A stretch of 58,643 bases of DNA from a virus (IMGVR_UViG_3300036798_000432:1-58643), one strand, 5' to 3'; counted from the stretch's first letter, positions 1 through 58,643 are shown. Translations and numbers: made by a program. Notes: generated from the letters alone by a model not told the origin.

Positions 1-152
1 CCGAGCTGACGCCGGCCTTTGCGGACGGGAATTACATCTCGAACGATTGGGGCCAGCAGTCCAATGGTCAAGGTTATCTGGAAGCCATCGCCGGGACCGG
101 AAGACCCGATCTTCAACGAAGGTCCGCGGAGCTACTCGCCACATTGGGGCCG
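1..152. repeat. Terminal direct repeat, left copy (circular contig overlap)
   Basis: 27-152 is identical to 58518-58643. 1-26 aligns to 58492-58517 with 6 mismatches, all synonymous in the spanning ORF. Confidence 0.95.
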
Positions 153-344
153 CGCGTATCTCAAGTCGAAGAAGAATTCGCCCGTACCCACGGGTGGACC
201 CCAGACCGGGCAACCCGGATCTGGGAGCAAAGTCCCCAAATCCAGCGATACGGAAACACCGTAGTGCCGGCACCGCCGCGGCCGTGGGCCGGTGGGCGGC
301 CGCCGGCGTTGGTGCCGGTCGATCACGATCCGTTCGCGCCGTGA
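3..344 (+). CDS. C-terminal part of the ~724-aa protein that starts at 56661 and crosses the contig junction
   Basis: Same frame as the ORF open at the window end (ELTPAFADGNYISNDW...). Ends PPALVPVDHDPFAP*. Confidence 0.85.
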   Translation, partial: ELTPAFADGNYISNDWGQQSNGQGYLEAIAGTGRPDLQRRSAELLATLGPRVSQVEEEFARTHGWTPDRATRIWEQSPQIQRYGNTVVPAPPRPWAGGRPPALVPVDHDPFAP

Positions 345-360
345 TCTGCCGATCGGGAAT

Positions 361-387
361 AAAACCAGGAATAAATTTCTTGGTTTT
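361..387. promoter_or_regulatory. AT-rich inverted repeat upstream of the sponge-like gene (hairpin or operator)
   Basis: AAAACCAGGAA-TAAAT-TTCTTGGTTTT, an 11-bp stem with one G-U pair, in a GC-rich background. Confidence 0.45.
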
Positions 388-425
388 GATCGTCAGCATG
401 GACGGCTTATCAAGGAATTAGACTG

Positions 426-650
426 ATGGCGCTGCACCCTTCCGTCTTTGAATACCTCACGCCCTCCGAAGAGCAGCTGACCCAGATGGCCGATGTTCGC
501 GCATACTTTGCCAGCTTCGCGCTATACCTCGACCACGCCCTGCCCGATGGTCCCGACAAGACCTACGTGCTGCGCCAGCTGCGCGACTGCGCGATGTGGG
601 CCAACGTGACGTTGCTGCGCACCGCCGACGGCACCCCGCGGACCCCCTGA
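426..650 (+). CDS. Acb2/Tad1-like helical-hairpin protein (putative cyclic-nucleotide sponge, anti-defence)
   Basis: 74 aa. FEYLTPSEEQ...VR...LPDGPDKTYVLRQLRDCAMWAN fits the F-x-Y-x-x-P...P-x-x-x-(E/D)K...MWAN pattern of this family as I recall it. Confidence 0.65.
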   Translation: MALHPSVFEYLTPSEEQLTQMADVRAYFASFALYLDHALPDGPDKTYVLRQLRDCAMWANVTLLRTADGTPRTP

Positions 651-677
651 GTTAACCGCCGCATGCGGAGCTGAGTG

Positions 678-941
678 ATGGCGATCAAGGCCGAAGAGCT
701 GGCGCTGATGGCCGAGGGCAAGGGCTGCCTCGGCAAGGCGGCCGACGACGAGCCGCTGTTTATCCTGCGGGCCAAGGACCCGGCGGCCGCCTTTATCGTG
801 CGGGTGTGGTGTCAGCTCGCCTGGCAGGCCGAATTGCACGAACCGGAGAAGATCGAGGACGCCAAGGTGCTGGCCGATCGGATGGAGGCCTGGCGTATGC
901 GGAATGTTACCGCGGCGCCGCTGCCCTGGAAGAAGGGCTAG
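678..941 (+). CDS. Conserved small phage protein (DEPxFxLRAxD motif)
   Basis: GGAG SD. DDEPLFILRAKDPAA...W...KIEDA...M..W is a recurrent phage hypothetical pattern. Confidence 0.75.
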   Translation: MAIKAEELALMAEGKGCLGKAADDEPLFILRAKDPAAAFIVRVWCQLAWQAELHEPEKIEDAKVLADRMEAWRMRNVTAAPLPWKKG

Positions 942-1240
942 GGCTTCTCCGGCGAATAGCCCCAGTCGACCGGGTCCTTTTCGCTGCCTGGAGTCCGCAT
1001 CGGCGGGGTCGGCTTCCAGCCCGGCGGGATCGGCGGCGGCCACTCGGGCTCGCGGATCACGACGCCACCCTCGCCGCGCACCCGCTCGCCCGTCAGCACG
1101 TCGAACCCGGACCAGTGGCTCGGGACGGTTGGCTCGCCGATGTGGCGCCACAGCGCGATGATCGACCGGCGCTGCTGGTACTCGTCCCAGGTTTCCGGGC
1201 GATCGTCGGGGCGAAGCGGGATTGGAGGAGGTAGAGCCAT
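938..1240 (-). CDS. Hypothetical Pro/Trp-rich protein, antisense within the portal-splitting cassette
   Basis: ATG at 1240 (MALPPPIPLRPDDRPETWDEY...). Fills the gap, and its stop overlaps the stop of 678..941. Confidence 0.55.
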   Translation of the reverse strand: MALPPPIPLRPDDRPETWDEYQQRRSIIALWRHIGEPTVPSHWSGFDVLTGERVRGEGGVVIREPEWPPPIPPGWKPTPPMRTPGSEKDPVDWGYSPEKP

Positions 1241-1257
1241 GGTCAGAAGGGTAGCCC

Positions 1258-2193
1258 GTGTCTGACCAGAGGAGCAATGTCGTCGGGTTTCCAGGTGGCG
1301 GCACCGTGCCGCCGGGGCCGGCCGGTGGGCCGCCTCCGGGGGTTGGGGGAACGCCTGCCCCACCGGGAACGACCGGGCCGCCCATTCGGCCAGGTCCGCC
1401 ACCGCCGGGCCCTGGGGGGCCTGCTTCAGGGCCCGGCGGGGCATCACCAGTCCCTGGCGGTCCGGCGCCGGGGGGTGCAGCGCCCGGACCGGGGCCGGTG
1501 GCGGCGCCGGGTATGACGCTCAACCCGGCTTTTATGCAATGGCAGCAAATGAGCCAGGCCTGGCACGCCGAAAACAACCGGCGCCGCCAGCAATTCCTGC
1601 AGGCGTGTCACACCCTGCGCCACGATGTGCGGACCGGCTACAAGATCGACATCGAAGCCGATTCGACGATCGCCCCCGATGAGCAGGCGGAAAAGCAGGC
1701 ACGCACCGAATTCCTGCAGTCGATCATGCCGATGCTGCAGATGATCATCCCGGAGGTGCAGAATAATCCGCAGGTCGCCCAGCTGGCGGCGGCACTGGTG
1801 ATGTTCGGGGTGCGGGCGTTCCCGGCGGCGCGCGGGCTCGAGGACACGTTTCTCCAGGCCTTTGCCGCGCTGGCGCAGGCGCCGCCGCAGCCCAATCAGG
1901 GGCAGGGCAAAGGCAACACCAAGTCGCCGATGGAGATCATGACCGAGGCGAAGACCGCGCAGGGTGATCAGCAGATCGATGCCGCAAAGGTCCAGGCTGA
2001 TCAGCAGAAAAACTCGATCGAGTTGATGAAGGCCTACATCGCGGCCCAGGGCGATCGGGCGAAATTGGCGCAGGAAGGCCAGCTCCGCGCCGCCGAGCTC
2101 GCGCAGCAGGGTCAGGAGATCCAGGACCGGTCGGCGCTCGAAGCGGCGCGGACCAGCCATTTGATGGCTCGCGACACCGCCGGATTGGTTTAA
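1258..2193 (+). CDS. Portal protein, C-terminal fragment (split portal, part 2)
   Basis: After a Pro/Gly tract, YKIDIEADSTIAPDEQAEKQARTEFL...FGVRAFPAARGLE and a Gln-rich coiled coil match the crown/barrel end of P22-like podophage portals. GTG start with AGAAGGG SD. An in-frame TAG lies at 1252. Confidence 0.8.
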   Translation: MSDQRSNVVGFPGGGTVPPGPAGGPPPGVGGTPAPPGTTGPPIRPGPPPPGPGGPASGPGGASPVPGGPAPGGAAPGPGPVAAPGMTLNPAFMQWQQMSQAWHAENNRRRQQFLQACHTLRHDVRTGYKIDIEADSTIAPDEQAEKQARTEFLQSIMPMLQMIIPEVQNNPQVAQLAAALVMFGVRAFPAARGLEDTFLQAFAALAQAPPQPNQGQGKGNTKSPMEIMTEAKTAQGDQQIDAAKVQADQQKNSIELMKAYIAAQGDRAKLAQEGQLRAAELAQQGQEIQDRSALEAARTSHLMARDTAGLV

Positions 2194-2223
2194 AAGAGCC
2201 CGTCTACATTCAAGTATGCCGGC

Positions 2224-3073
2224 CCGGGGATCCCCCTGACCGGCAGAGGGTAGGGTGTATCTGCAGGCCCCTGCAGGTGCAGGGTTGGGAGCGAACCGCG
2301 CGAGGGGCCTCGCGCTTTCCGCCAAAAAAGGAGTTCTGTGGTATGCCGTTTGTCGAAGGCTATTTGGACGAGAAGTGGATCATGGGAGGGCCAGGGCGCC
2401 CGACTCACCCGATCGCGCCCGGTGGTGGTGAGCCAGCGCACCCGATCGTGCTGCCGCCGGGGCCGGTCGATCCTGGTTATGGCGTGCCTTTGCCGCCAGT
2501 GGTGTCGCATCCGATCCCGCCATCGGTCTGGCCGCCTCAGCCCGGAAGTCCGCCGACCTATCCGGTTGACCCTGACTACGGGCTGCCGGTACCACCGACC
2601 GTGTGGCCGCAGCCGCCAAGGCCGCCCGGTCCCGATCAAGGCCTGCCGCCGATCCCGGTTTCGCCGGAGCATCCGATCTATTATCCACCGGAAGGCCAGC
2701 CGCCCGAGCTGCCGCCGGGGAGCGTGTGGCCCCCGCTGCCGCCGTCGGTGACGGGTATCATTACAGCCTTCATCTGGATTGTTGGCGTCGGCTATCGCTG
2801 GACCACGATCGATACCAGCCTCAAGCCCGTGCATCCGATCGTCATTCCACCGTCGAACGTGCCGGGGGTGCCAACGCACCCGATCGCACCAGGCGGGGGC
2901 ACCCCGACCCGTCCGATGGACCCGGGCGGCCAACCGACACCGACCGGTCGCCGAGGGTAAGTAATCGAGGGCTGAACTCTGGCGGCGGACCGGCAGATAT
3001 GAGGCCCTGGGGAGTAGAGCCCGGTCCGTCTAGGCAAACGCTCCCAAGCCGGTGATCCCCGGTCGAGCAGGGG
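2224..3073 (+). ncRNA. Putative large RNA structure formed by the two flanks of the 2343..2960 ORF
   Basis: Pairings: 2224-2232/3054-3062, 2239-2244/3048-3053, 2285-2293/3039-3047, 2319-2324/2980-2985 and 2331-2336/2974-2979, plus local hairpins. Confidence 0.5.
2343..2960 (+). CDS. Proline-rich protein with repeated P-x-HPI and PVDPxYG motifs
   Basis: AAGGAG SD before ATG 2343. Seven HPI motifs, then an FIWIVGVGYRWTTID segment. Confidence 0.8.
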   Translation: MPFVEGYLDEKWIMGGPGRPTHPIAPGGGEPAHPIVLPPGPVDPGYGVPLPPVVSHPIPPSVWPPQPGSPPTYPVDPDYGLPVPPTVWPQPPRPPGPDQGLPPIPVSPEHPIYYPPEGQPPELPPGSVWPPLPPSVTGIITAFIWIVGVGYRWTTIDTSLKPVHPIVIPPSNVPGVPTHPIAPGGGTPTRPMDPGGQPTPTGRRG

Positions 3074-3119
3074 TGGAAGGCCCCGCGTCTATTCGGTGGA
3101 AGAAAACCAGGAGAAAGCG

Positions 3120-3494
3120 ATGGCATTCCGGCGACGCTGGGTGGTGCGCGACGGCCGGCTGGTCGAGCTCGATCTCGAGGCGCCCTTGCCGCCGCCGGTG
3201 GCGCCGATGATACGCAGCGATATCAGTCCTTATCGCTCGGTGAAGACCGGGGAGATGATCACCGGTCGGGCGCAGCACCGCGAGCACCTGCAGCGGCACG
3301 GAATGATCGAGGTCGGTAACGAGCGCGCGCCGTTCTTCAACCGGCCGGCCGCCGGGCCGCCGCCGGGTGACATCGCCAGCGACATCAAGCAGCAATTGGC
3401 GCGCGATCCGGTGGAGCGGCGGAGCGAGGCGACCCGGGTGCTCAACCAGGCCGGCTATTCTGGACCGCAGGTGGAGCGCATCCTAAAATCCTGA
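3120..3494 (+). CDS. Conserved head-module protein of unknown function
   Basis: AGGAG SD. SDISPYRSVKTGEMITGRAQHREHLQRHGMIEVGNE is a motif often found between portal and scaffold genes. Confidence 0.8.
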   Translation: MAFRRRWVVRDGRLVELDLEAPLPPPVAPMIRSDISPYRSVKTGEMITGRAQHREHLQRHGMIEVGNERAPFFNRPAAGPPPGDIASDIKQQLARDPVERRSEATRVLNQAGYSGPQVERILKS

Positions 3495-6303: not shown

Positions 6304-7335
6304 ATGCCCTCACCGAACCCGAATTGGGGTGAAATTACGACAACCACGTTGTTCAATCGGAGCCGAAAACTCGCAGACAATGTGACGAAGAACAACGCCA
6401 TCCTGGCAAGACTGTCGCAAAGGAACAAAGTCAAGCCTGTCGACGGCGGTCAGGCGATCGTGCAGGAGCTCGAATACAGCGAGAACGGGACCTATAAAAG
6501 GTACACCGGCTATGACATTTTGAATGTCTCGCCGTCGGATGTATTCACCGCCGCACAGTACCCGTGGGCACAGGCCGCTGTCGCGGTCAGCATCAGCGGT
6601 CTCGAGGAATTGCAGAACAGCGGCGAAGAGCGGATGATCGATCTGCTCGAGTCGCGCATCGGCAATGCCGAGAGGACGATGACCAACGGGATCTCGGGCG
6701 ACTGCTACGGCAACGGCACCTTGGACGGCGGCAAGCAGATCGGTGGTCTGCAATTGCTGGTCGCCGATGTGCAGACTGCCGGGGTGGTCGGTGGTATCGA
6801 TCGCGGGTTGTGGCCGTTTTGGCGGGCCTACATTGGTTCCTTCTCGGCGGCGGCAATAACTCCGGGAACAGCCACCATCCAAACCATGATGAACCGCCAA
6901 TGGTTAAATCAAGTCCGTGGGACCGATAGACCAGACCTAATAATAGCTGACAACGCTTACTTCAGTTTCTACTGGGAAAGCTTGCAAGCTATTCAGCGTA
7001 TCACCCAGGCTAACGAAGGAATGGCTGGTTTCCAGACGCTGAAATTTATGGACGCCGACGTTGTATTTGACGGCGGCTTCCAGGGTGTCGCGGGCGGTTC
7101 GGGGACGACGATCGGAGGGGGGATCACCTGGGCGACCCCGAGTGGTGCTCCGTCCAATCACATGTATTTCCTGAACACCGACTATATATTCCTGCGTCCG
7201 CATCGTGAACGGAACATGGTGCCGCTCAATCCCGACCGGTTCACGGTCAACCAAGACGCAATGGTCAAGTTGGTGGGGTGGGCCGGCAACATGACGATGA
7301 GCAACGCGTTCTTGCAAGGTGTGCTCATCAACTAG
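6304..7335 (+). CDS. Major capsid protein (HK97 fold, podovirus type)
   Basis: ITTTTLFNRSRKLADNVTKNNAIL, GGQAIVQELEY, SISGLEELQNSG, YFLNTDYIFLRPH, NQDA...WAGNMTMSN. Confidence 0.95.
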   Translation: MPSPNPNWGEITTTTLFNRSRKLADNVTKNNAILARLSQRNKVKPVDGGQAIVQELEYSENGTYKRYTGYDILNVSPSDVFTAAQYPWAQAAVAVSISGLEELQNSGEERMIDLLESRIGNAERTMTNGISGDCYGNGTLDGGKQIGGLQLLVADVQTAGVVGGIDRGLWPFWRAYIGSFSAAAITPGTATIQTMMNRQWLNQVRGTDRPDLIIADNAYFSFYWESLQAIQRITQANEGMAGFQTLKFMDADVVFDGGFQGVAGGSGTTIGGGITWATPSGAPSNHMYFLNTDYIFLRPHRERNMVPLNPDRFTVNQDAMVKLVGWAGNMTMSNAFLQGVLIN

Positions 7336-7371
7336 CCGGTCGTCGTGCTAACGCTTAGAGCGGAGTGAGAA

Positions 7372-7860
7372 ATGTCTTGGTCAATACAAGATGACTTGAT
7401 CGGCATGCCGCCGATCACGACTGTGGATGCCGCGCCGCGGGTGGCGCCCGGCATGATTGCGCATGCTGTCGATCCGGTGCTCGGCGGGGGCGAGTTTCTC
7501 TACCTCCCGGGGGTGGTCAATACGGTTGTCGGGTCGCTGGTGACTTACAACCAGGCGGCGCCGTCGACCACCTTGGCGGCGACCGGGGCGCAAAACGGCA
7601 ACCCGGTGGCGGTCGCCATGGCCGCGGTCGGGGCCGGGCAGTGGGGCTGGTTTCAGGTCACCGGCCAGGCCAAGATCGCCAAAACCGCGGTGGCGATCTC
7701 GCTGGGAGCCGCGCTGGCGATCAGCGCCACCGGCGGCCAGGTCGCTGCGGCCGGCACACCTGGTGCCGCCGGCTCGCTCGATGCTGCACTCTGCTCGGCT
7801 GCGGCACTGGCGGGCGATGCCACGGTGTCGGCGCAGATCTCGCGCCCGGCGCTCAACTAA
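7372..7860 (+). CDS. Capsid decoration/minor head protein
   Basis: GGGEFLYLPG...AVAMAA...QWGWFQVTG. Directly follows the MCP. Confidence 0.75.
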   Translation: MSWSIQDDLIGMPPITTVDAAPRVAPGMIAHAVDPVLGGGEFLYLPGVVNTVVGSLVTYNQAAPSTTLAATGAQNGNPVAVAMAAVGAGQWGWFQVTGQAKIAKTAVAISLGAALAISATGGQVAAAGTPGAAGSLDAALCSAAALAGDATVSAQISRPALN

Positions 7861-36143: not shown

Positions 36144-36239
36144 GGGTGCTCCGTTGCTAGTGTCCCCAAAGGGGTTCGAACCCTTGTTTTCGCCGTGAAA
36201 GAGCGATGTCCTGGGCCGCTAGACGATGGGGACGAGATC

Positions 36240-52191: not shown

Positions 52192-52275
52192 CAGGGTGGG
52201 GTCCCCCAGAAAAAGTTTTTGCCCGACGGGTGGGGATGCGACTCCACCCTAGACCAAACCCAGAACATCGGAAAA

Positions 52276-54483
52276 ATGATGCCGAGCTACGAGCCGCAGG
52301 GCGCGCAGCTGCGTGCCTTTTCCGCCTCCAATGCGTTTTTGCGGGCCCTGATCGGGCCGATCTACGGCGGCCGCAAAAGCTGCTGCATCAACGATATCGT
52401 TCGACGGGCGACAATCCGGCGGTGGGCGAAGCAAACCCGCTGGCGGTGGGTCGTAGTGGCGCCGATTCGCCGCGAGCTCGAGCGATTTGTGATCCCAACG
52501 ATCAAGAATTGGCTGGAAGTCGGCGAATACGACGACAAAGGGCGGCATTTCGCCCTGCATTACCGCCTCGAGGACGGGGTCCAGCGTCTGATCGAGATCG
52601 ATTTCCTCGGTATGGACGATGCGCAGGACCGAAAACGCTTCGCTGTGGCCACGGCGACGGGTGTCTGGCTCGATGATGCCCGAAATTTGAGCGAAAGCGT
52701 CCTCGAAGACGCGATGCGCATCGCCGGCACGTACCCGACACCGCTCGCCGGTGGGGCGATGTGGTCGGGGGTGATCTGCTCGTCGCGGATGCCGCCGCCT
52801 GGTCATTGGCTGGTGCGCAGGCCAGAGGACCCGGGCGATTTACAGCTGTTTCGTCAGCCTGGCGGGCGGACCGCGGAGGCCGAGAACCTGCCGGCGCTGC
52901 AGGCCAGGGGCTTCAGCTACGAGGCGTTTGCCAGCGAGCGCGACGCCGACTGGATCAGGGTCAATATCGACGGCGAGCTCGGGCAAACCGCGACCGAGGC
53001 GGCGGCCGAGGCCGAACGAGCCGCTGCCCGCCAGCAATTGACCCGTTGGGTCGGGCTGACGATGCCCGATTTGACGCCGGCACGGCATCACGAGCTGCTG
53101 ATTGCCAAGCTCGAGGCCCTGGCGCGGCGCGAAATCAAGCGTTTGATGTTCTTTTTGCCGCCTGGATCGGCCAAAAGCACCTATGGCAGCGTGCTTTTCC
53201 CCTCCTGGTACATCGGCAACCACCCGACGCACTCGGTAATCGCCGCCTCGCACTCCAAGGAGCTCGCCGAGCGGTTTGGCCGCCGGGTCCGCAACATCGT
53301 CGGTTCACCAATCTTTCGGGAAACGTTCGGGTTTGGCCTGAGCGGCGATTCGGGTGCCGCCGGGCGCTGGGAAACCGCCCGCGGGGGCGAATATTTTGCC
53401 GTCGGCGTCGACGCCTCGGTCACCGGCCGGCGCGCCCATCTCGGTATCATCGATGATCCGGTCAAAGGCCGCGCCGAGGCCGACAGTGCGACGATCCGGC
53501 AGCACGTTTGGGAGTGGTACAAGGCCGATTTCTGGACCCGGCTCGTGCCCGAGGCGACGATGCTCTACATCGGCACCCGGTGGCACGAGGATGATCTCGC
53601 CGGGCGCCTGCTCGAGGACGCCAAGGTCGGCGGCGAGCAATGGGAAGTGGTCAGTCTGCCGGCGATCGTCGAGGAGGAGGGGGATGCGCTGGGCCGGATC
53701 ATCGGCGAGCGGCTCTGGCCCGAGTGGTACACCCCGGAGATGCTGGAGGTCGCCCAGCGCGACACGCGGAACTGGTCGGCACTCTGGCAGCAGCGGCCAA
53801 TGCCGGAATCGGGCGACTATTTCCAGAATGACTGGGTGCGCTGGTATGACAGCGCCCCGCCGCGTGACCGGCTGCGCACCTATGGCGCCTCGGATTACGC
53901 GGTGAAGGCCAATGCCGGCGACTGGACGGTGCACCTGGTCGCCGGGATCGACCCCAACGATGATCTCTATCTCCTAGATCTGTGGCGCAAACAAACCGCC
54001 TCGAACGAATGGGTCGAGTCGGTTATCGATCTGATGGATCTGTGGAAAACCATCACCTGGGCCGAGGAGGCCGGGCAGATCGAGAAGGGGGTCGGGCCGT
54101 TTCTGACCAAGCGTCAGCTCGAGCGCAAGATCTACGCGGTCAGAAAGCAATACAGCTCGGCCGCGGACAAGGCGGTGCGAGCCCAGGCGATCCGCGGCCG
54201 GGTGGCGATGGGCAAGGTGTACTTGCCCAAGCGCGCGCCCTGGGCGCCGGTGCTGCTCGACGAAATGCTGCGCTTTCCGGCTGGGAAAGCAGATGACCAG
54301 GTCGACGGCCTGGCCCTTTTGGGCCGGATGCTCGACGAGATGGTGCCGGGGAGCAAACCCAAGCCGGCGGCCGAGGAGCCGCGCGGGGTTTCCGGCATGA
54401 CGCTCGACGAGCTGTGGAAGCTCGATAAGCGATATTTCAAAAATGGCCGGTTTGTCGGGGATGGTCGGCCGCTGAGGATCTGA
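52276..54483 (+). CDS. terL: Terminase large subunit with an extra, degenerate N-terminal TerL ATPase domain
   Basis: Intact unit: PPGSAKST, IIDDP, GTRWH, nuclease ASDYA / AEEA / DDQVD. Extra unit: GPIYGGRKS, GVWLDD, G.YP...GG..WSG, FRQPGG....AENL. Confidence 0.9.
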   Translation: MMPSYEPQGAQLRAFSASNAFLRALIGPIYGGRKSCCINDIVRRATIRRWAKQTRWRWVVVAPIRRELERFVIPTIKNWLEVGEYDDKGRHFALHYRLEDGVQRLIEIDFLGMDDAQDRKRFAVATATGVWLDDARNLSESVLEDAMRIAGTYPTPLAGGAMWSGVICSSRMPPPGHWLVRRPEDPGDLQLFRQPGGRTAEAENLPALQARGFSYEAFASERDADWIRVNIDGELGQTATEAAAEAERAAARQQLTRWVGLTMPDLTPARHHELLIAKLEALARREIKRLMFFLPPGSAKSTYGSVLFPSWYIGNHPTHSVIAASHSKELAERFGRRVRNIVGSPIFRETFGFGLSGDSGAAGRWETARGGEYFAVGVDASVTGRRAHLGIIDDPVKGRAEADSATIRQHVWEWYKADFWTRLVPEATMLYIGTRWHEDDLAGRLLEDAKVGGEQWEVVSLPAIVEEEGDALGRIIGERLWPEWYTPEMLEVAQRDTRNWSALWQQRPMPESGDYFQNDWVRWYDSAPPRDRLRTYGASDYAVKANAGDWTVHLVAGIDPNDDLYLLDLWRKQTASNEWVESVIDLMDLWKTITWAEEAGQIEKGVGPFLTKRQLERKIYAVRKQYSSAADKAVRAQAIRGRVAMGKVYLPKRAPWAPVLLDEMLRFPAGKADDQVDGLALLGRMLDEMVPGSKPKPAAEEPRGVSGMTLDELWKLDKRYFKNGRFVGDGRPLRI

Positions 54484-54904: not shown

Positions 54905-56647
54905 ATGGCCGATTTAGCGGTTGCCTCGACAGTTGTCGGCACGATCGAAGAGCGCAAGGACCTCGGCACCGAGCCGAATGCGATCTGGCGCTTCTGGAAC
55001 TCGCAGCTGAAGCTCGCCGAGCGAACTGATGAGGACTGGATCAAGCGGGGGCGCCAGGCAGTCGACCGGTACCGCGACGAGCGCGACCAGAACGAGGCGC
55101 GGGCCAGCAAATACAACGTCTTGTGGTCAAATGTGGAGACCCTCAAGCCGGTGCTCTACGGGCGGACGCCAGAACCGGACGTCGCCCGCCGGCACAAGGA
55201 TCAGCATGACGCAGTGGCCTCGCTGGGCGCCCAGATCCTCGAAACCGCGCTGGATTACGAGAACGATATCGAAGAATTCGACGCGGTGATGCAGCAAGTC
55301 GTCGAAGATCGGTTATTGCCCGGCCGTGGTGTCGCCAGAGTGTTCTACGAGCCGGAATTTGGCGAGGAAGAGGAAGACCAAGACGCCGAGCCCGATGAAG
55401 AGGGTAATCAGCCGACATTTCAGTCGGTGACCAATGAGAGAGCGCCGGTGCGCTATGTATTCTGGGAAGATTACCGAGAAACACCGGCCAGAACGGAAGG
55501 CGAGATCTGGTGGAAGGCCTACCGGGTATTTATGACCCGCGACGAGCTCGTCGAGCGGTTTGGCAGTGAAATCGGCAAAAAGGTGACCCTCGATTACACC
55601 CCGTCGGGGGTGCATGCGGTGGCCAGCGAGGCGCAATGGGGCCCGCTGGCGGACATGTTCAAAAAGGCGACCGTCTGGGAGATTTGGGACCGCAAACGCA
55701 AGGAAGCGGTGTGGATCGCCAAGGCCTGGTCGGACGCGCCGCTCGACAGCCAGGACGACCCTTTGGAATTGCCGGATTTTTTCCCGTCGCCGCCGGCTTT
55801 GCGGGCGACCACGACCAATGAGCAGCGGGTCTCGGTCAACGATTATGTTGAATATCAAGACCAGGCGATGGAGCTCGACACATTGACCGCGCGGATCGAC
55901 CGCCTGACCCGGGCGCTCAAGGTCTCGGGTGTCTATGCGGGCTCGGAGAAGATGACCCTGCAGCAGCTGGTCGACGATTCGAGCGAGAACAAATTGATCC
56001 CGGTCGAGGATTGGACCGGGTTTGCCGGCGACAAGGGCGGGCTCAACGGGTTGATCCAGTGGCTGCCGGTCGAGCAGATCGCTCGCGTCCTGATCCAGCT
56101 CTATGACGCCCGCGAGCGCACCCTGCGGATCATCTACCAGACGACCGGCATCGCCGACATTCTGCGCGGCGAAACCAATCCGATCGAGACGCTGGGCGCG
56201 CAGCAGCTGAAGACCCAGTTTGCGACCCGGCGCATCACCCGGGCGCAAAAGGACGTCGCCCGCTTCGCCCGCGATCTGCTGCGGCTCAAAGGGGCGGTGA
56301 TGGCGCGGCATTTTATGCCCGAGACGCTCTCGCGGATGTCCGGGCTTCCCGAACCGCTCCCGGCACTGCCGCCACCCCCGCCGATGATGATCCCGGCGCC
56401 GTCTCCTGCGGCGGCCGGTTCGGCGCTAGGCGGCCCGGCGCTACCCTCGTCGGCTCCCGTCCCGGGAGCGGTACCAGCAAGGCCCCCGGGCATGGCCCCG
56501 GGCCTTCCGCCGGGTGCTGGTGGTGCACCTGGCATCCGGCCACCCCTGGCACCGGCGGCGCCGGTGCCAGGGGCACGGCTCGCGCCCGATGGCCGCCATT
56601 ATGTGCCGGACCCGCGGCGCCCCGGCAAATACCTGATGGTGGCTTAA
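54905..56647 (+). CDS. Portal protein, N-terminal fragment (split portal, part 1)
   Basis: YNVLWSNVETLKP.LY...P.PDV.RR, DRLLPGRGVARV, VWEIWD, DPLEL..FFP.P, IYQ.TGIADILRG, ETLGAQQLK. Then Pro-rich tail and stop, lacking the IDIEADST region. Confidence 0.9.
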   Translation: MADLAVASTVVGTIEERKDLGTEPNAIWRFWNSQLKLAERTDEDWIKRGRQAVDRYRDERDQNEARASKYNVLWSNVETLKPVLYGRTPEPDVARRHKDQHDAVASLGAQILETALDYENDIEEFDAVMQQVVEDRLLPGRGVARVFYEPEFGEEEEDQDAEPDEEGNQPTFQSVTNERAPVRYVFWEDYRETPARTEGEIWWKAYRVFMTRDELVERFGSEIGKKVTLDYTPSGVHAVASEAQWGPLADMFKKATVWEIWDRKRKEAVWIAKAWSDAPLDSQDDPLELPDFFPSPPALRATTTNEQRVSVNDYVEYQDQAMELDTLTARIDRLTRALKVSGVYAGSEKMTLQQLVDDSSENKLIPVEDWTGFAGDKGGLNGLIQWLPVEQIARVLIQLYDARERTLRIIYQTTGIADILRGETNPIETLGAQQLKTQFATRRITRAQKDVARFARDLLRLKGAVMARHFMPETLSRMSGLPEPLPALPPPPPMMIPAPSPAAAGSALGGPALPSSAPVPGAVPARPPGMAPGLPPGAGGAPGIRPPLAPAAPVPGARLAPDGRHYVPDPRRPGKYLMVA

Positions 56648-56660
56648 GCCGGGAGGGCCG

Positions 56661-58643
56661 ATGTCGGAGACTCGGGTTGACCCGGACACCGGTGCCACCC
56701 TGGTGCCGGTCGATCACGACCCGTACACCGAGGCGTCGCCGCCGGGTTATTTTGACAAGATCGGTCAGGATCTCGCCGATTTCTGGCAGCAGCCGCTGGC
56801 CCACGTCAAACAGCGATTGTCCGATATCGGACAGTCGTTTAGCGATGTCGCGACCGGTGGATTGCAGCGCCAGGCCGAGCTCACCGGTGCGGACTATTCA
56901 GGCCAGCCGCTGATCGGGGTCGATCCCTCGAGCGGCGAGCTCACCGGGCGATTGCCGGCATTGGCCGAGCTGGCGCGCAGTGGCATGGCTGGGCCGGTGC
57001 CGGGTGGCGCCTTGGGTGCGGGGCCGGCGATCCTCGGACGAGCGGGCCGTGCTGCGGCCGAGGCGGGCAATCTCGACACGCCGATCAGCGACACATTGCA
57101 GGCCGGCAAGTTCGCTGATCAGCTGCGGGCCGAGCACCTGGCGCGCGACAGCGGGTTGCCGTTGAGCGGTGCCGATCAGCCGGTCAGCCCGCCGCCGCAC
57201 ATCCAGACGCCGGCCGACATGGATGGGCTGGTCAACCGTTACGCCGATCTTGCCGAAAGCGGGGCTAATGCCAAGGATTGGTACGCTCAAAGCGGACGGG
57301 CAATCCTCAACGCGGCCGGTGACCCCGAGGCCGCCGACCGTCTGGCCGCGACGTTGGCGGTATCCTCGCCACGCACTAGTGTCGCCGAGAACGCATCGCG
57401 GGCCGTCACGCTATGGAACCAGGCGATGACCAACGAGCCGGTGCTCGCGGTCGGCGGCCGCGGCGGCATGCAGATCGGTGAGCGCGCGGCACCGCTGCTC
57501 TACGAGGGCGCGCCGATGACCGGCGAGAAGACCGGACCCTTTAAGACCGCGCTGGGCTTGACCTGGGATCCCGACCCGGCCGGGCATCCCTTTGTCAACG
57601 ACATCTGGAACATGCGCGCCGCCGAATATCCGCCCGAGCTCGGCAGTGACAAAACGGCGCCCTACTACACCGGCTCGCCGACCCTTGGGCAGCACAACTT
57701 CACGAGAATTCTGGCGGACCGGGCGGCCGATGTGCTGAATTCGCGCACCGGCGAGAATTGGAGCCCGGAACAGATCCAGGCCTCGGTGTGGGCGGGCAAG
57801 AAATCGGCGGTCGAGGGCACGCCGGTCGGGGATGCGGCGTTCAATTTCGCCGACGCGCTGAAGTCCCGCTTTGGGCAGCAGAGCTGGGAGTCGGCGCCGG
57901 GCGAGACCTCCAACAACCTGCCCGAGTTTCATCAGGCCGCGGCGCCGGACCAGCAGGCCTATCACGACGCGATCCGCGGTGCGCTGGAGGACGATCAGGG
58001 GCGCGACATCATCTCGCGCCACCTGGGGCTGCTGACCGGGCCCAGCTTTGAAGGGCCGGGGGTCTTTCAAGGAGTGGTGCGGCCGGGGAGCCAGGCGCAA
58101 AGCCTGGCCGGCGCGGCGATACAGGGCGGCTATCTCGGCGGGGTCGATCAATCGACCCGCGACCTCTTCGACACCGCGGAAGCCACTCGAGGGCTGCTAT
58201 TGCGCCAGGATGCTTCGGCCTGGCACGTGCCGACCTATCGGGCTGGGCTCAAGCCGGGCGACAGCAACATGGTCGACGTCAATATCGGCCGGCCGCTCAG
58301 TGCCGAGGAGGCGCGTTCGGTGGTCGATGCGATGCAGACGGCGACCGGCAAGGACTTCTTCAGCCCGATCGCGACGCAGAACGGGTTCCGCCTGCAGAAC
58401 GTGCCCGACCAATCGGGCGTCAAGAACATAGACTTCCAAAAGTCGGTTGAAAAAGCCCTCGGAAATGCCGATTTTCAAGGGGTCGACAAGGCCGAATTGA
58501 CACCCGCCTTTGCCGATGGGAATTACATCTCGAACGATTGGGGCCAGCAGTCCAATGGTCAAGGTTATCTGGAAGCCATCGCCGGGACCGGAAGACCCGA
58601 TCTTCAACGAAGGTCCGCGGAGCTACTCGCCACATTGGGGCCG
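56661..58643 (+). CDS. Large cargo protein (continues to 344) with an HhH-glycosylase-like/DUF7178-like domain
   Basis: GGAGG SD. No stop through the window end in my translation. WY...LAVSSPRTSV.EN...GEKT.PF...VNDIW...EQIQASVW. Starts ...LVPVDHDPY. Confidence 0.75.
   Translation, partial: MSETRVDPDTGATLVPVDHDPYTEASPPGYFDKIGQDLADFWQQPLAHVKQRLSDIGQSFSDVATGGLQRQAELTGADYSGQPLIGVDPSSGELTGRLPALAELARSGMAGPVPGGALGAGPAILGRAGRAAAEAGNLDTPISDTLQAGKFADQLRAEHLARDSGLPLSGADQPVSPPPHIQTPADMDGLVNRYADLAESGANAKDWYAQSGRAILNAAGDPEAADRLAATLAVSSPRTSVAENASRAVTLWNQAMTNEPVLAVGGRGGMQIGERAAPLLYEGAPMTGEKTGPFKTALGLTWDPDPAGHPFVNDIWNMRAAEYPPELGSDKTAPYYTGSPTLGQHNFTRILADRAADVLNSRTGENWSPEQIQASVWAGKKSAVEGTPVGDAAFNFADALKSRFGQQSWESAPGETSNNLPEFHQAAAPDQQAYHDAIRGALEDDQGRDIISRHLGLLTGPSFEGPGVFQGVVRPGSQAQSLAGAAIQGGYLGGVDQSTRDLFDTAEATRGLLLRQDASAWHVPTYRAGLKPGDSNMVDVNIGRPLSAEEARSVVDAMQTATGKDFFSPIATQNGFRLQNVPDQSGVKNIDFQKSVEKALGNADFQGVDKAELTPAFADGNYISNDWGQQSNGQGYLEAIAGTGRPDLQRRSAELLATLGP
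58492..58643. repeat. Terminal direct repeat, right copy
   Basis: Matches 1-152. Confidence 0.95.

Follow-up and report, generated by a model that had tools for sequence, protein, structure and literature searches.

We analyzed the portal gene of an uncultivated virus, record IMGVR_UViG_3300036798_000432, over its whole length of 58,643 nucleotides (nt), which is called the window below. The gene is present as two open reading frames (ORFs), an N-terminal half (portN) and a C-terminal half (portC). As the initial annotation, made from the sequence alone, had described and the ORF tables bore out, the halves are separated on the circular map by 3,101 nt that hold four genes. Portals are regarded as dodecamers of a single chain. 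One polypeptide per protomer is not what this gene encodes, since reading ends with a stop codon at 56645-56647 and begins anew at 1258. The window is a complete IMG/VR virus record with a CheckV completeness of 98%, and the host of the virus is probably a soil alphaproteobacterium. The contig closes on itself via two strain variants joined at its ends: all mismatches between positions 1-152 and 58492-58643 fall within the first 26 nt, the remainder is exact, and the same peptide is read from both copies. Because the overlap carries these six differences, IMG/VR assigned the record to its linear class. The features of the portal region are as follows (E, expect value; aa, amino acids; L and P numbers are our handles for loci and proteins).

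52219-54483, plus strand: gene of the large terminase subunit (phrog_38, E = 1.5e-109; Pfam Terminase_6N, E = 3.8e-13), 5' of the portal gene as in relatives.
54905-56647, plus strand: portN, entire ORF of 580 aa (phrog_12082, "portal protein").
54905-56347, plus strand: conserved core of portN, residues 1-481 (phrog_12082 positions 14-473 of 715, E = 6e-139).
56348-56572, plus strand: Pro-rich linker of portN, not conserved in sequence among relatives, whose tblastn matches end at residue 480-485.
56573-56647, plus strand: 24-residue C-terminal tail of portN, ARLAPDGRHYVPDPRRPGKYLMVA, with the stop codon; a proposed docking peptide, near-invariant as protein across eight loci.
1-152, plus strand: contig-end overlap, a copy of 58492-58643 with six synonymous mismatches.
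1239-1265, plus strand: upstream ORF of eight codons, its TGA overlapping codons 2-3 of portC (read directly from the sequence).
1258-2193, plus strand: portC, 311 aa, GTG start (phrog_12082).
1258-1512, plus strand: Pro/Gly-rich head of portC with an NVVGFPGG motif at 1276-1299 (alignment of C halves); a similar motif is found in the linker of single-chain fragments, e.g. P0028.
1513-2193, plus strand: conserved part of portC (NPAF..., a YKIDIEADST strand, helices and a GLV end; phrog_12082 positions 526-703, E = 1e-20).
3096-3494, plus strand: conserved gene found after the portal in split and single-chain relatives (tblastn matches in L004-L007 and immediately behind the single-chain portal of L011).

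Both halves match phrog_12082 colinearly, and they are colinear with single-chain relatives. The part of portC that corresponds to family positions 526-703 comprises its residues 117-298, so that the portC ORF aligns to portal C-termini, as the initial annotation had supposed. Past its family match, portN consists of a Pro-rich stretch of about 99 aa followed by the stop codon. An in-frame TAG at 1252-1254, also noted earlier, stands ahead of the portC GTG, and GGAGGAGG at 1224-1231 is closer to the eight-codon upstream ORF than to this GTG; the upstream ORF is a possible translational coupling device. In the phages Mx8 and Mx9, one single portal gene covers the match, and in Rhizobium RHph_I3_18 and Ruegeria 45A6 the matches to the two halves lie about 300 nt apart under one annotated gene. 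The residues DIE[AT]DST..D, F, P and F..R..E are common to free-standing C halves and single chains. The portal gene is also placed as expected, after the large terminase gene and, with its C half, before the gene at 3096-3494, which marks the original 3' neighbour of the portal. Neither half was matched in Pfam or NCBIfam, and searches of solved-structure sequences with portN, portC and a family profile gave nothing significant (best portal rows, E 0.26-0.29).

A library-wide search with portC yielded 1,743 hits at E ≤ 0.001, which included both free-standing and full-length proteins. Among the best 150 of these, 53 proteins had at least 600 aa, 17 were fragments that still contained sequence of the N part, 38 started with methionine and a leader before the conserved strand (at least two of them, P0007 and P0022, being single-chain fragments), one had a leader but no methionine start, and 41 began inside the C part or lacked the strand motif. 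The motif N-V-(V/I/M)-(P/G)-F-P-G (window 1276-1299; P0003, P0004, P0011, P0026, P0028, P0031) opens most free-standing C halves, occurs inside the linker of single-chain fragments as well, and lies just downstream of the cut.

A search of IMG/VR with portN returned ten loci. L004 (90% identity), L006 and L007, among others, contain portN, a large gene, variable genes where present, and portC in one contiguous order, and in L005 the halves lie 3.8 kilobases (kb) apart with a different large gene between them. L011 and L013 (37-41% identity) carry both portal parts in one ORF, and L008-L010 and L012 end too early to show both parts. An alignment of C halves used as query against the same database gave 80 loci, 79 of them new (L007 recurred). 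Both parts were present in 82 loci of the series L004-L092: in one ORF in 65 cases, split at the linker in 14 (L004 and L014 being the same contig) and broken elsewhere in three. For metagenome contigs, some of which duplicate IMG/VR contigs, the corresponding figures were 59 loci with one ORF, eight split or broken and 13 with one half only (80 loci). Species genomes provided 34 loci, 32 of which had a single ORF; L122 was split at the linker and L119 looked decayed. The nearest relatives in species genomes were prophage-like loci in Alphaproteobacteria and Xanthobacteraceae assemblies (52-57% identity in portN). These split counts, like the counts of terminal motifs given below, were made with regular expressions among the matches listed.

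The possibility of an assembly chimera, raised together with the original observation, was checked in several ways. Other contigs show this gene order uninterrupted, with no contig junction at this place. Moreover, an independent Logan assembly of the probable source run reproduced positions 56143-58643 without any difference, and contigs from two other soil studies span the 3' part of portN, the Pro-rich stretch (56411-56562, diverged yet equal in length) and the large gene. The two halves proved to be intact genes rather than pseudogenes: relative to L004, the ratio of nonsynonymous to synonymous substitution rates (dN/dS) was 0.086 for portN and 0.115 for portC (0.09 and 0.12 when rounded), indicating purifying selection, and it was below 0.5 in seven more distant comparisons, in which dS is saturated. 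In a quick maximum-likelihood tree of portN with 32 rows, one clade contained split portals in 15 of its 15 rows (SH-aLRT branch support 99), and portN identity within it falls to about 61%. Its sister group consists of three single chains and the split locus L025. As the split loci L025, L122 and L156 all fall outside the main clade, this linker has been cut on four or more occasions. We conclude that the portal is encoded by two cistrons, which arose from an ancestral single-chain portal of the Mx8/phrog_12082 type by a cut in a linker of variable length, and that this fission has been inherited by a whole clade and repeated in other lineages.

The break had been placed in a Pro-rich loop, and single-chain relatives agree with this, as they have a linker of 30-135 aa at the same place (median 73.5 in 50 relatives, counted from a '...HF' motif to the 'DIE(A/T)DS' strand). 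When single-chain members were compared with P22-type portals, P22 gp1 included, using hhalign, the alignment (probability 87.5%, E = 3.6e-6) covered P22 residues 81-488 and stopped, at about residue 488, where the conserved part of portN stops; against P22 gp1 alone, the family scored a probability of 4%. According to a report on the P22 portal (Lokareddy et al. 2017, PMC5290284), residues 456-505 form the 'hammer' loop of the wing, an exposed surface element that contacts the crown in procapsids and is disordered once the virion has matured, and the crown and the barrel comprise residues 525-600 and 600-725, respectively. Because the end of the alignment falls within 456-505, the cut maps to the hammer-loop position, and the linker would correspond to this loop. 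By the same alignment, the N half would represent wing, stem and stalk. The C half presumably provides the rest of the wing strand, the crown and the barrel, judging from its position and from an ESM Atlas model of the single-chain protein of L011. Across the break, this model can be aligned with portal clusters (residues 3-626 to 3-687, template modeling score 0.59-0.77), one of which is named P22_portal. The window portal resembles the single-chain portals of Mx8 and Mx9 (phrog_12082) and P22 gp1 in family or distant kinship, in its place after the terminase gene and in a flexible surface loop at the equivalent position (PMC5290284). Unlike these proteins, which are one chain, it ends in the loop and restarts 3.1 kb later.

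The loop had also been suggested to be a tolerated landing site for cargo genes, and relatives bear this out with inserts of 0 to 4.8 kb (from the N-half stop to the C-half start) that contain differing genes. The halves adjoin directly in L015, L025 and L128, and are separated by 0.26 kb in L017, L018 and L021, by 0.9 kb in L019, by about 1.5 kb in L022 and L138, by 3.1-3.8 kb in the window, L004-L007, L024 and L130, and by 4.5 kb in L020. The insert-less junctions read TGA-G-GTG (L015), ATGA (L025, L122, L156) or TGAcATG behind GGAGGAG (L128), and have the form of those of coupled cistrons; in L017, an 85-aa ORF sits between the halves with ATGA on each side. A natural reversal of the split may also exist. 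Positions 2-877 of L127 are 99.65% identical to L128 (5388-6717) and L016 except that 454 nt between 6-nt microhomologies are missing, which fuses N and C parts in frame through a linker of about 20 aa. We consider this a probable natural re-fusion of the portal halves, and no more than probable, since the contig ends 157 nt away from the junction.

In the window, the slot between the halves contains the following genes.

56661-58643, plus strand: cargo gene (724 aa), first 661 codons, with an LVPVDHDPY motif at 56700-56726 (ORF tables, motif scan).
153-344, plus strand: cargo gene, last 63 codons and stop codon, with an LVPVDHDPF motif at 309-335 (ORF tables, motif scan).
426-650, plus strand: Acb2/Tad1-like protein, 74 aa (Pfam PF24729 Acb2_Tad1_hairpin, 35.6 bits against a cut-off of 27, E = 1.1e-8; phrog_1454).
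675-941, plus strand: 88-aa protein of no family (no Pfam, PHROG or NCBIfam match), with a 95% identical copy in L004.
938-1240, minus strand: 100-aa ORF, the first 36 aa of which are 53% identical to L006:12573-13055 (plus strand).

The cargo gene has its full length of 724 aa because the contig ends overlap, so that the ORF at 56661-58643 runs on in frame at 153-344. Twenty homologues of its product were found, two of which contain DUF7178 (PF23802; P0168 and P0169). Its ESM Atlas features score 0.93 to DUF7178 clusters, and the Pfam DUF7178 model matches neither the window protein nor the copy in L004; tblastn against 50,697 phage records returned no match. The product of 426-650 is, by its family name, a putative anti-CBASS nucleotide sponge. 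Its likeness to the Acb2/Tad1 anti-CBASS/anti-Thoeris sponges lies in the match to the hairpin domain, and its location inside a portal gene is unusual. The ORF at 938-1240 is probably a real gene. It was considered as a homing endonuclease and rejected, as it has one weak PHROG match to HNH proteins (E = 0.0037), no Pfam match and no HNH residues; no HNH, GIY-YIG or LAGLIDADG match to any slot gene was found in Pfam or NCBIfam. The slot of L020 contains a transposase of the IS1595 family (6670-7626, minus strand; DDE_Tnp_IS1595, E = 3.7e-39). Small genes enter and leave the slot: one of 77 aa, in which 'VGMPxxxARLxG' units are repeated, is found inside it in L006 (12153-12386) and after the C half in L005 (9225-9458).

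In the lineage of the window, the N half ends in the conserved 24-residue tail on a Pro-rich tether, and the first slot gene encodes the 724-aa protein with LVPVDHDP(Y/F) at both ends. Neither the conserved tail nor its link to the motif-flanked gene behind it was part of the initial annotation. The tail ARLAPDGRHYVPDPRRPGKYLMVA is nearly invariant in eight loci and among relatives with N halves that are 61-90% identical, and the changes in its DNA are synonymous. In split-portal relatives, the product of the gene after the tail always begins, and usually ends, with (L/I)(I/V)PVDHDP(F/W/Y), referred to here as the tag. A six-frame scan of 244 portal-selected sources found tail and tag together in 15, one of them alone in none, and neither in 229; the tail always preceded a gene with LIPVDHDPF motifs at its product ends (15/15 versus 0/229). 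The payload of L138 is related to that of L022 and lacks the tags, and the N half of L138 lacks the tail.

The pair also occurs on other proteins. A search for the tail itself identified 41 proteins that end in it, of which 17 are full P22_portal proteins and four belong to a group of 491-497 aa. The latter (P0204-P0206 and P0209), which have no Pfam or PHROG match, end in the tail variant ...APDGKYYVPDPKRQGKWLQVTR. Among 40 loci with P22-type portals, L208 and L213 have the tail, and in these two and no others a tagged gene follows directly. Pam5, a short-tailed cyanophage in culture (Pseudanabaena phage, ON014757; L248, 3868-8153), has the tail on gp12 and the tag on gp13. Its gp12, named 'tail lysozyme' and containing a Phage_lysozyme2 domain, ends in ...APDGNTYVPDPNRPGKYLMVQP, and gp13, the next gene, starts with two LVPVD(Y/H)DPF tags. 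Pam5 was the only match for the tail, and likewise the only match for the tag, in the 50,697 phage records.

A DNA pattern for the tag is present at at least 130 places in IMG/VR. We followed up 80 of these loci, which gave 77 distinct tagged ORFs, 59 of them with a tag no more than 25 residues from a methionine (a few of these 59 being really C-terminal tags); a tail-like peptide is encoded within 600 nt upstream of 35 of the 59. Fourteen tag loci were chosen for inspection of the preceding gene, 13 of which had an upstream ORF. Ten of these ORFs were scanned against Pfam: one is a portal of the SU10 type, one a portal of the P22 type and one a VanY-domain protein, and the other seven gave no match. 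The SU10-type portal and the VanY-domain protein bear the tail as well.

The tagged proteins carry one to six copies of the motif. Those encoded after split portN genes form three families that share only the end motifs: a DUF7178-like type of 724-800 aa, to which the window protein belongs, a type of 841-933 aa, and a type of 446-591 aa with weak ART-PolyVal matches. Two tagged proteins, P0213 and P0216, begin with a run of six PVDHDPF-type tags and end in a DddA-like domain of the double-stranded-DNA deaminase kind (64 and 45.7 bits; cut-off, 25), a layout that resembles polymorphic toxins. ART-PolyVal domains were matched in other tagged proteins, in one case at 32.2 bits against 31.2 and in three just below the cut-off. 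For effectors that are fused to portal or MuF domains, packaging and injection have already been proposed (Iyer et al. 2017, PMC5512222).

The best explanation overall, to which we assign a probability of about 0.75, is a portal of two cistrons and two chains, cut at the hammer-loop linker, with a slot for cargo. Its two halves would be made separately and assemble non-covalently into the portal ring, an arrangement suggested by homology. Through fission, the loop would become an intergenic slot, and the N half would gain a C-terminus that is free inside the capsid, as the tail needs. The tail and the tag, acting as a docking pair, might then bring the 724-aa protein to the portal vertex for packaging and for ejection together with the DNA; this part we put forward as a hypothesis with even odds. 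The Acb2-like gene and the two genes of no recognised function would ride in the same slot as counter-defence or moron cargo. In its most general form, the proposal would be a portable two-part address for loading the head: a basic tail (...APDGxxYVPDPxRPGKYLxV) at a free C-terminus of a protein of the portal vertex on one side, and one to six acidic (L/I)xPVDHDPF cargo tags on the other. In this phage family, the hammer-loop cut would supply that C-terminus, and twelve tethered tails per portal would hold exchangeable effectors (deaminases, ADP-ribosyltransferases, DUF7178 proteins) for ejection. We offer this wider form tentatively, at somewhat less than even odds. The tail and tag pair is possibly a new system.

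Several observations speak against this explanation: (i) the window separates the halves by 3.1 kb that include an opposite-strand gene, so that the coupling of the insert-less relatives is lost, along with an evident means of keeping the two amounts equal; (ii) promoter and terminator scans of window positions 1-2600 found nothing above shuffled sequences (in L007, one terminator-like site after the cargo gene is within expectation); (iii) a C-half profile compared with P22-type portals by hhalign reached a probability of 3%, i.e. no detectable similarity to their C-terminal part; (iv) the 724-aa cargo protein has no recognised enzymatic domain in Pfam or NCBIfam; and (v) 24 of the 59 near-start tagged ORFs, which come from motif-selected loci, have no tail-like peptide within 600 nt upstream, and for this reason the tail may not be the receptor of the tag, or not the sole one.

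The last of these points bears on the strongest competing view, in which tail and LIPVDHDPF motif are not a docking pair but maturation-protease sites, signals for a third partner (capsid, scaffold or host protein) or handles for cassette recombination. It would fit with the tags being present in one to six copies and at both ends, with Asp-Pro occurring in tail and tag alike, and with the fact that tail and cargo gene adjoin and would therefore move together anyway. However, both peptides are conserved as protein, with synonymous DNA changes, across phages of differing base composition, and the pair co-occurs on three portal families and two cell-wall-hydrolase virion proteins. Furthermore, the motif-less payload of L138 is paired with a tail-less N half, and the charges are complementary in sequence, the tail being basic and the motif acidic. 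On balance, we regard a role other than docking as a real possibility, though clearly short of an even chance.

The N half might, alternatively, form the ring by itself, the C half being a separate or dispensable protein such as a barrel-like or scaffold-like accessory. A P22 portal cut at residue 602, and so devoid of the barrel, still yields a portal core, and the crown is only flexibly joined to the wing (PMC5290284). The lack of profile similarity between the C half and P22-type portal C-termini and the uncoupled expression of the halves in the window also agree with such a ring. Nevertheless, the C half retains the residues conserved in single-chain portals, stands at its ancestral place before the conserved downstream gene, is under purifying selection, and appears to be translationally coupled to the N half wherever an insert is absent. 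The probable in-frame re-fusion in a near-identical strain (L127) and the Atlas alignment, which runs from the single-chain relative to portal models through the C part, are likewise at odds with a dispensable C half. We therefore consider an N-half-only ring unlikely.

The initial annotation had left open whether the portal assembles from two chains or is rejoined at the RNA or protein level; the former is favoured, and the latter found no support. Routes to a joined chain would be removal of the 3.1 kb by RNA splicing or programmed DNA excision, protein trans-splicing, and bypass or frameshift by the ribosome. Rejoining would restore the single chain that portals normally are; fusion at the DNA level can occur, as the 454 nt missing from L127 suggest, and insert-less relatives have an open C frame for some codons ahead of the stop codon. 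A frameshift fusion in these relatives was considered as a general mechanism and rejected, as it cannot apply to kilobase inserts. At gathering threshold, Rfam found only the tRNA gene at 36161-36233 and no group I or group II intron family, Pfam found no Hint/intein domain in either half, and the Pro/Gly-rich tails have neither a Cys/Ser start nor an HN end. The inserts vary in length and content, including opposite-strand genes and an insertion sequence; direct matches on the two sides of the cassette do not exceed 11-13 nt and lie in GC-rich, low-complexity DNA; and no recombinase was recognised in the cassette by Pfam, PHROG or NCBIfam scans. In addition, stop codon, Shine-Dalgarno and start signals have been kept in all lineages, insert-less relatives retain stop-start junctions, and the tail at the extreme end of the N half is conserved as protein. 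Taken together, these data make a rejoined chain very improbable.

Chimeric assembly, a sequencing frameshift or gene decay in a defective phage could be argued to underlie the split from the mismatches in the contig-end overlap, the linear class in IMG/VR and the error-prone nature of Pro-rich, GC-rich DNA, but the chance of this is negligible given the same contiguous gene order in several samples, the identical sequence from a second assembler, the bridging of the junction in two other studies, the dN/dS of 0.09-0.12, the completeness of 98% and the age of the split clade, in which portN identity goes down to about 61%.

It is already known that essential phage genes can be split into assembling pieces and that effectors can be linked to portals as fusions. 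The former is exemplified by Aeromonas phage Aeh1, in which the ribonucleotide reductase is split into NrdA-a and NrdA-b by the homing endonuclease gene mobE, a case of 'genes in pieces' with the tails at the cut being needed for function (Crona et al. 2010, PMC3045599). The two cases are alike in that inserted DNA cuts an essential phage gene into two intact cistrons with new C- and N-terminal tails at the cut, and in that function is restored in NrdA by two-chain assembly rather than splicing, as would also hold for the portal halves. The differences are that no homing endonuclease was found in the portal slot, that the portal cut is inherited by a clade and recurrent in other lineages, that the slot carries 0 to 4.8 kb of varying cargo, that the portal is a ring-forming structural protein and not an enzyme, and that its tail is a portable peptide also present on unsplit portals.

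Conflict-type payloads (in relatives, with ART and deaminase-like domains) encoded beside the portal recall the portal- or MuF-fused effectors and the packaged polyvalent proteins (PMC5512222). In contrast to such fusions, the payload here is a separate, putatively packaged chain with short end motifs, and the portal bears a short tail instead of an effector. Other proteins are brought into the phage head, to be ejected along with the DNA, by a short signal or by being placed at the portal vertex; examples are the T4 internal proteins with their capsid-targeting peptides and P22-like ejection proteins. The tail/tag pair has no sequence relation to either. Within the open-access literature searched, we found no report of a split portal gene or of DUF7178, and no occurrence of the tail and tag motifs.

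A portal that is naturally and heritably split, and cut repeatedly in the same loop, shows where an essential machine tolerates a break, and makes the break a natural site for engineering or for display inside the capsid. The slot, which gathers counter-defence and effector-like genes, the Acb2-like one included, represents a new kind of hot spot located inside an essential structural gene. If tail and tag are a docking system, they would constitute a simple and transferable code by which chosen proteins could be loaded into phage heads, and would predict which phage proteins of no assigned function are injected. Portal plasticity, slot and docking are all directly testable with peptides, virion proteomics and Pam5, which, as a cultured phage, offers a ready experimental system for the tail/tag pair.

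Two minor observations were also made. Three distant single-chain relatives have one in-frame stop near residue 125-140 after which the frame continues (L045:8998/8999, L162:6778/6779 and L202:2734/2735); it is at the same position in L045 and L162, and these stops could reflect read-through, recoding, a pseudogene or an error. The tRNA gene of the window is encoded on the minus strand and matches RF00005 with 59.7 bits.

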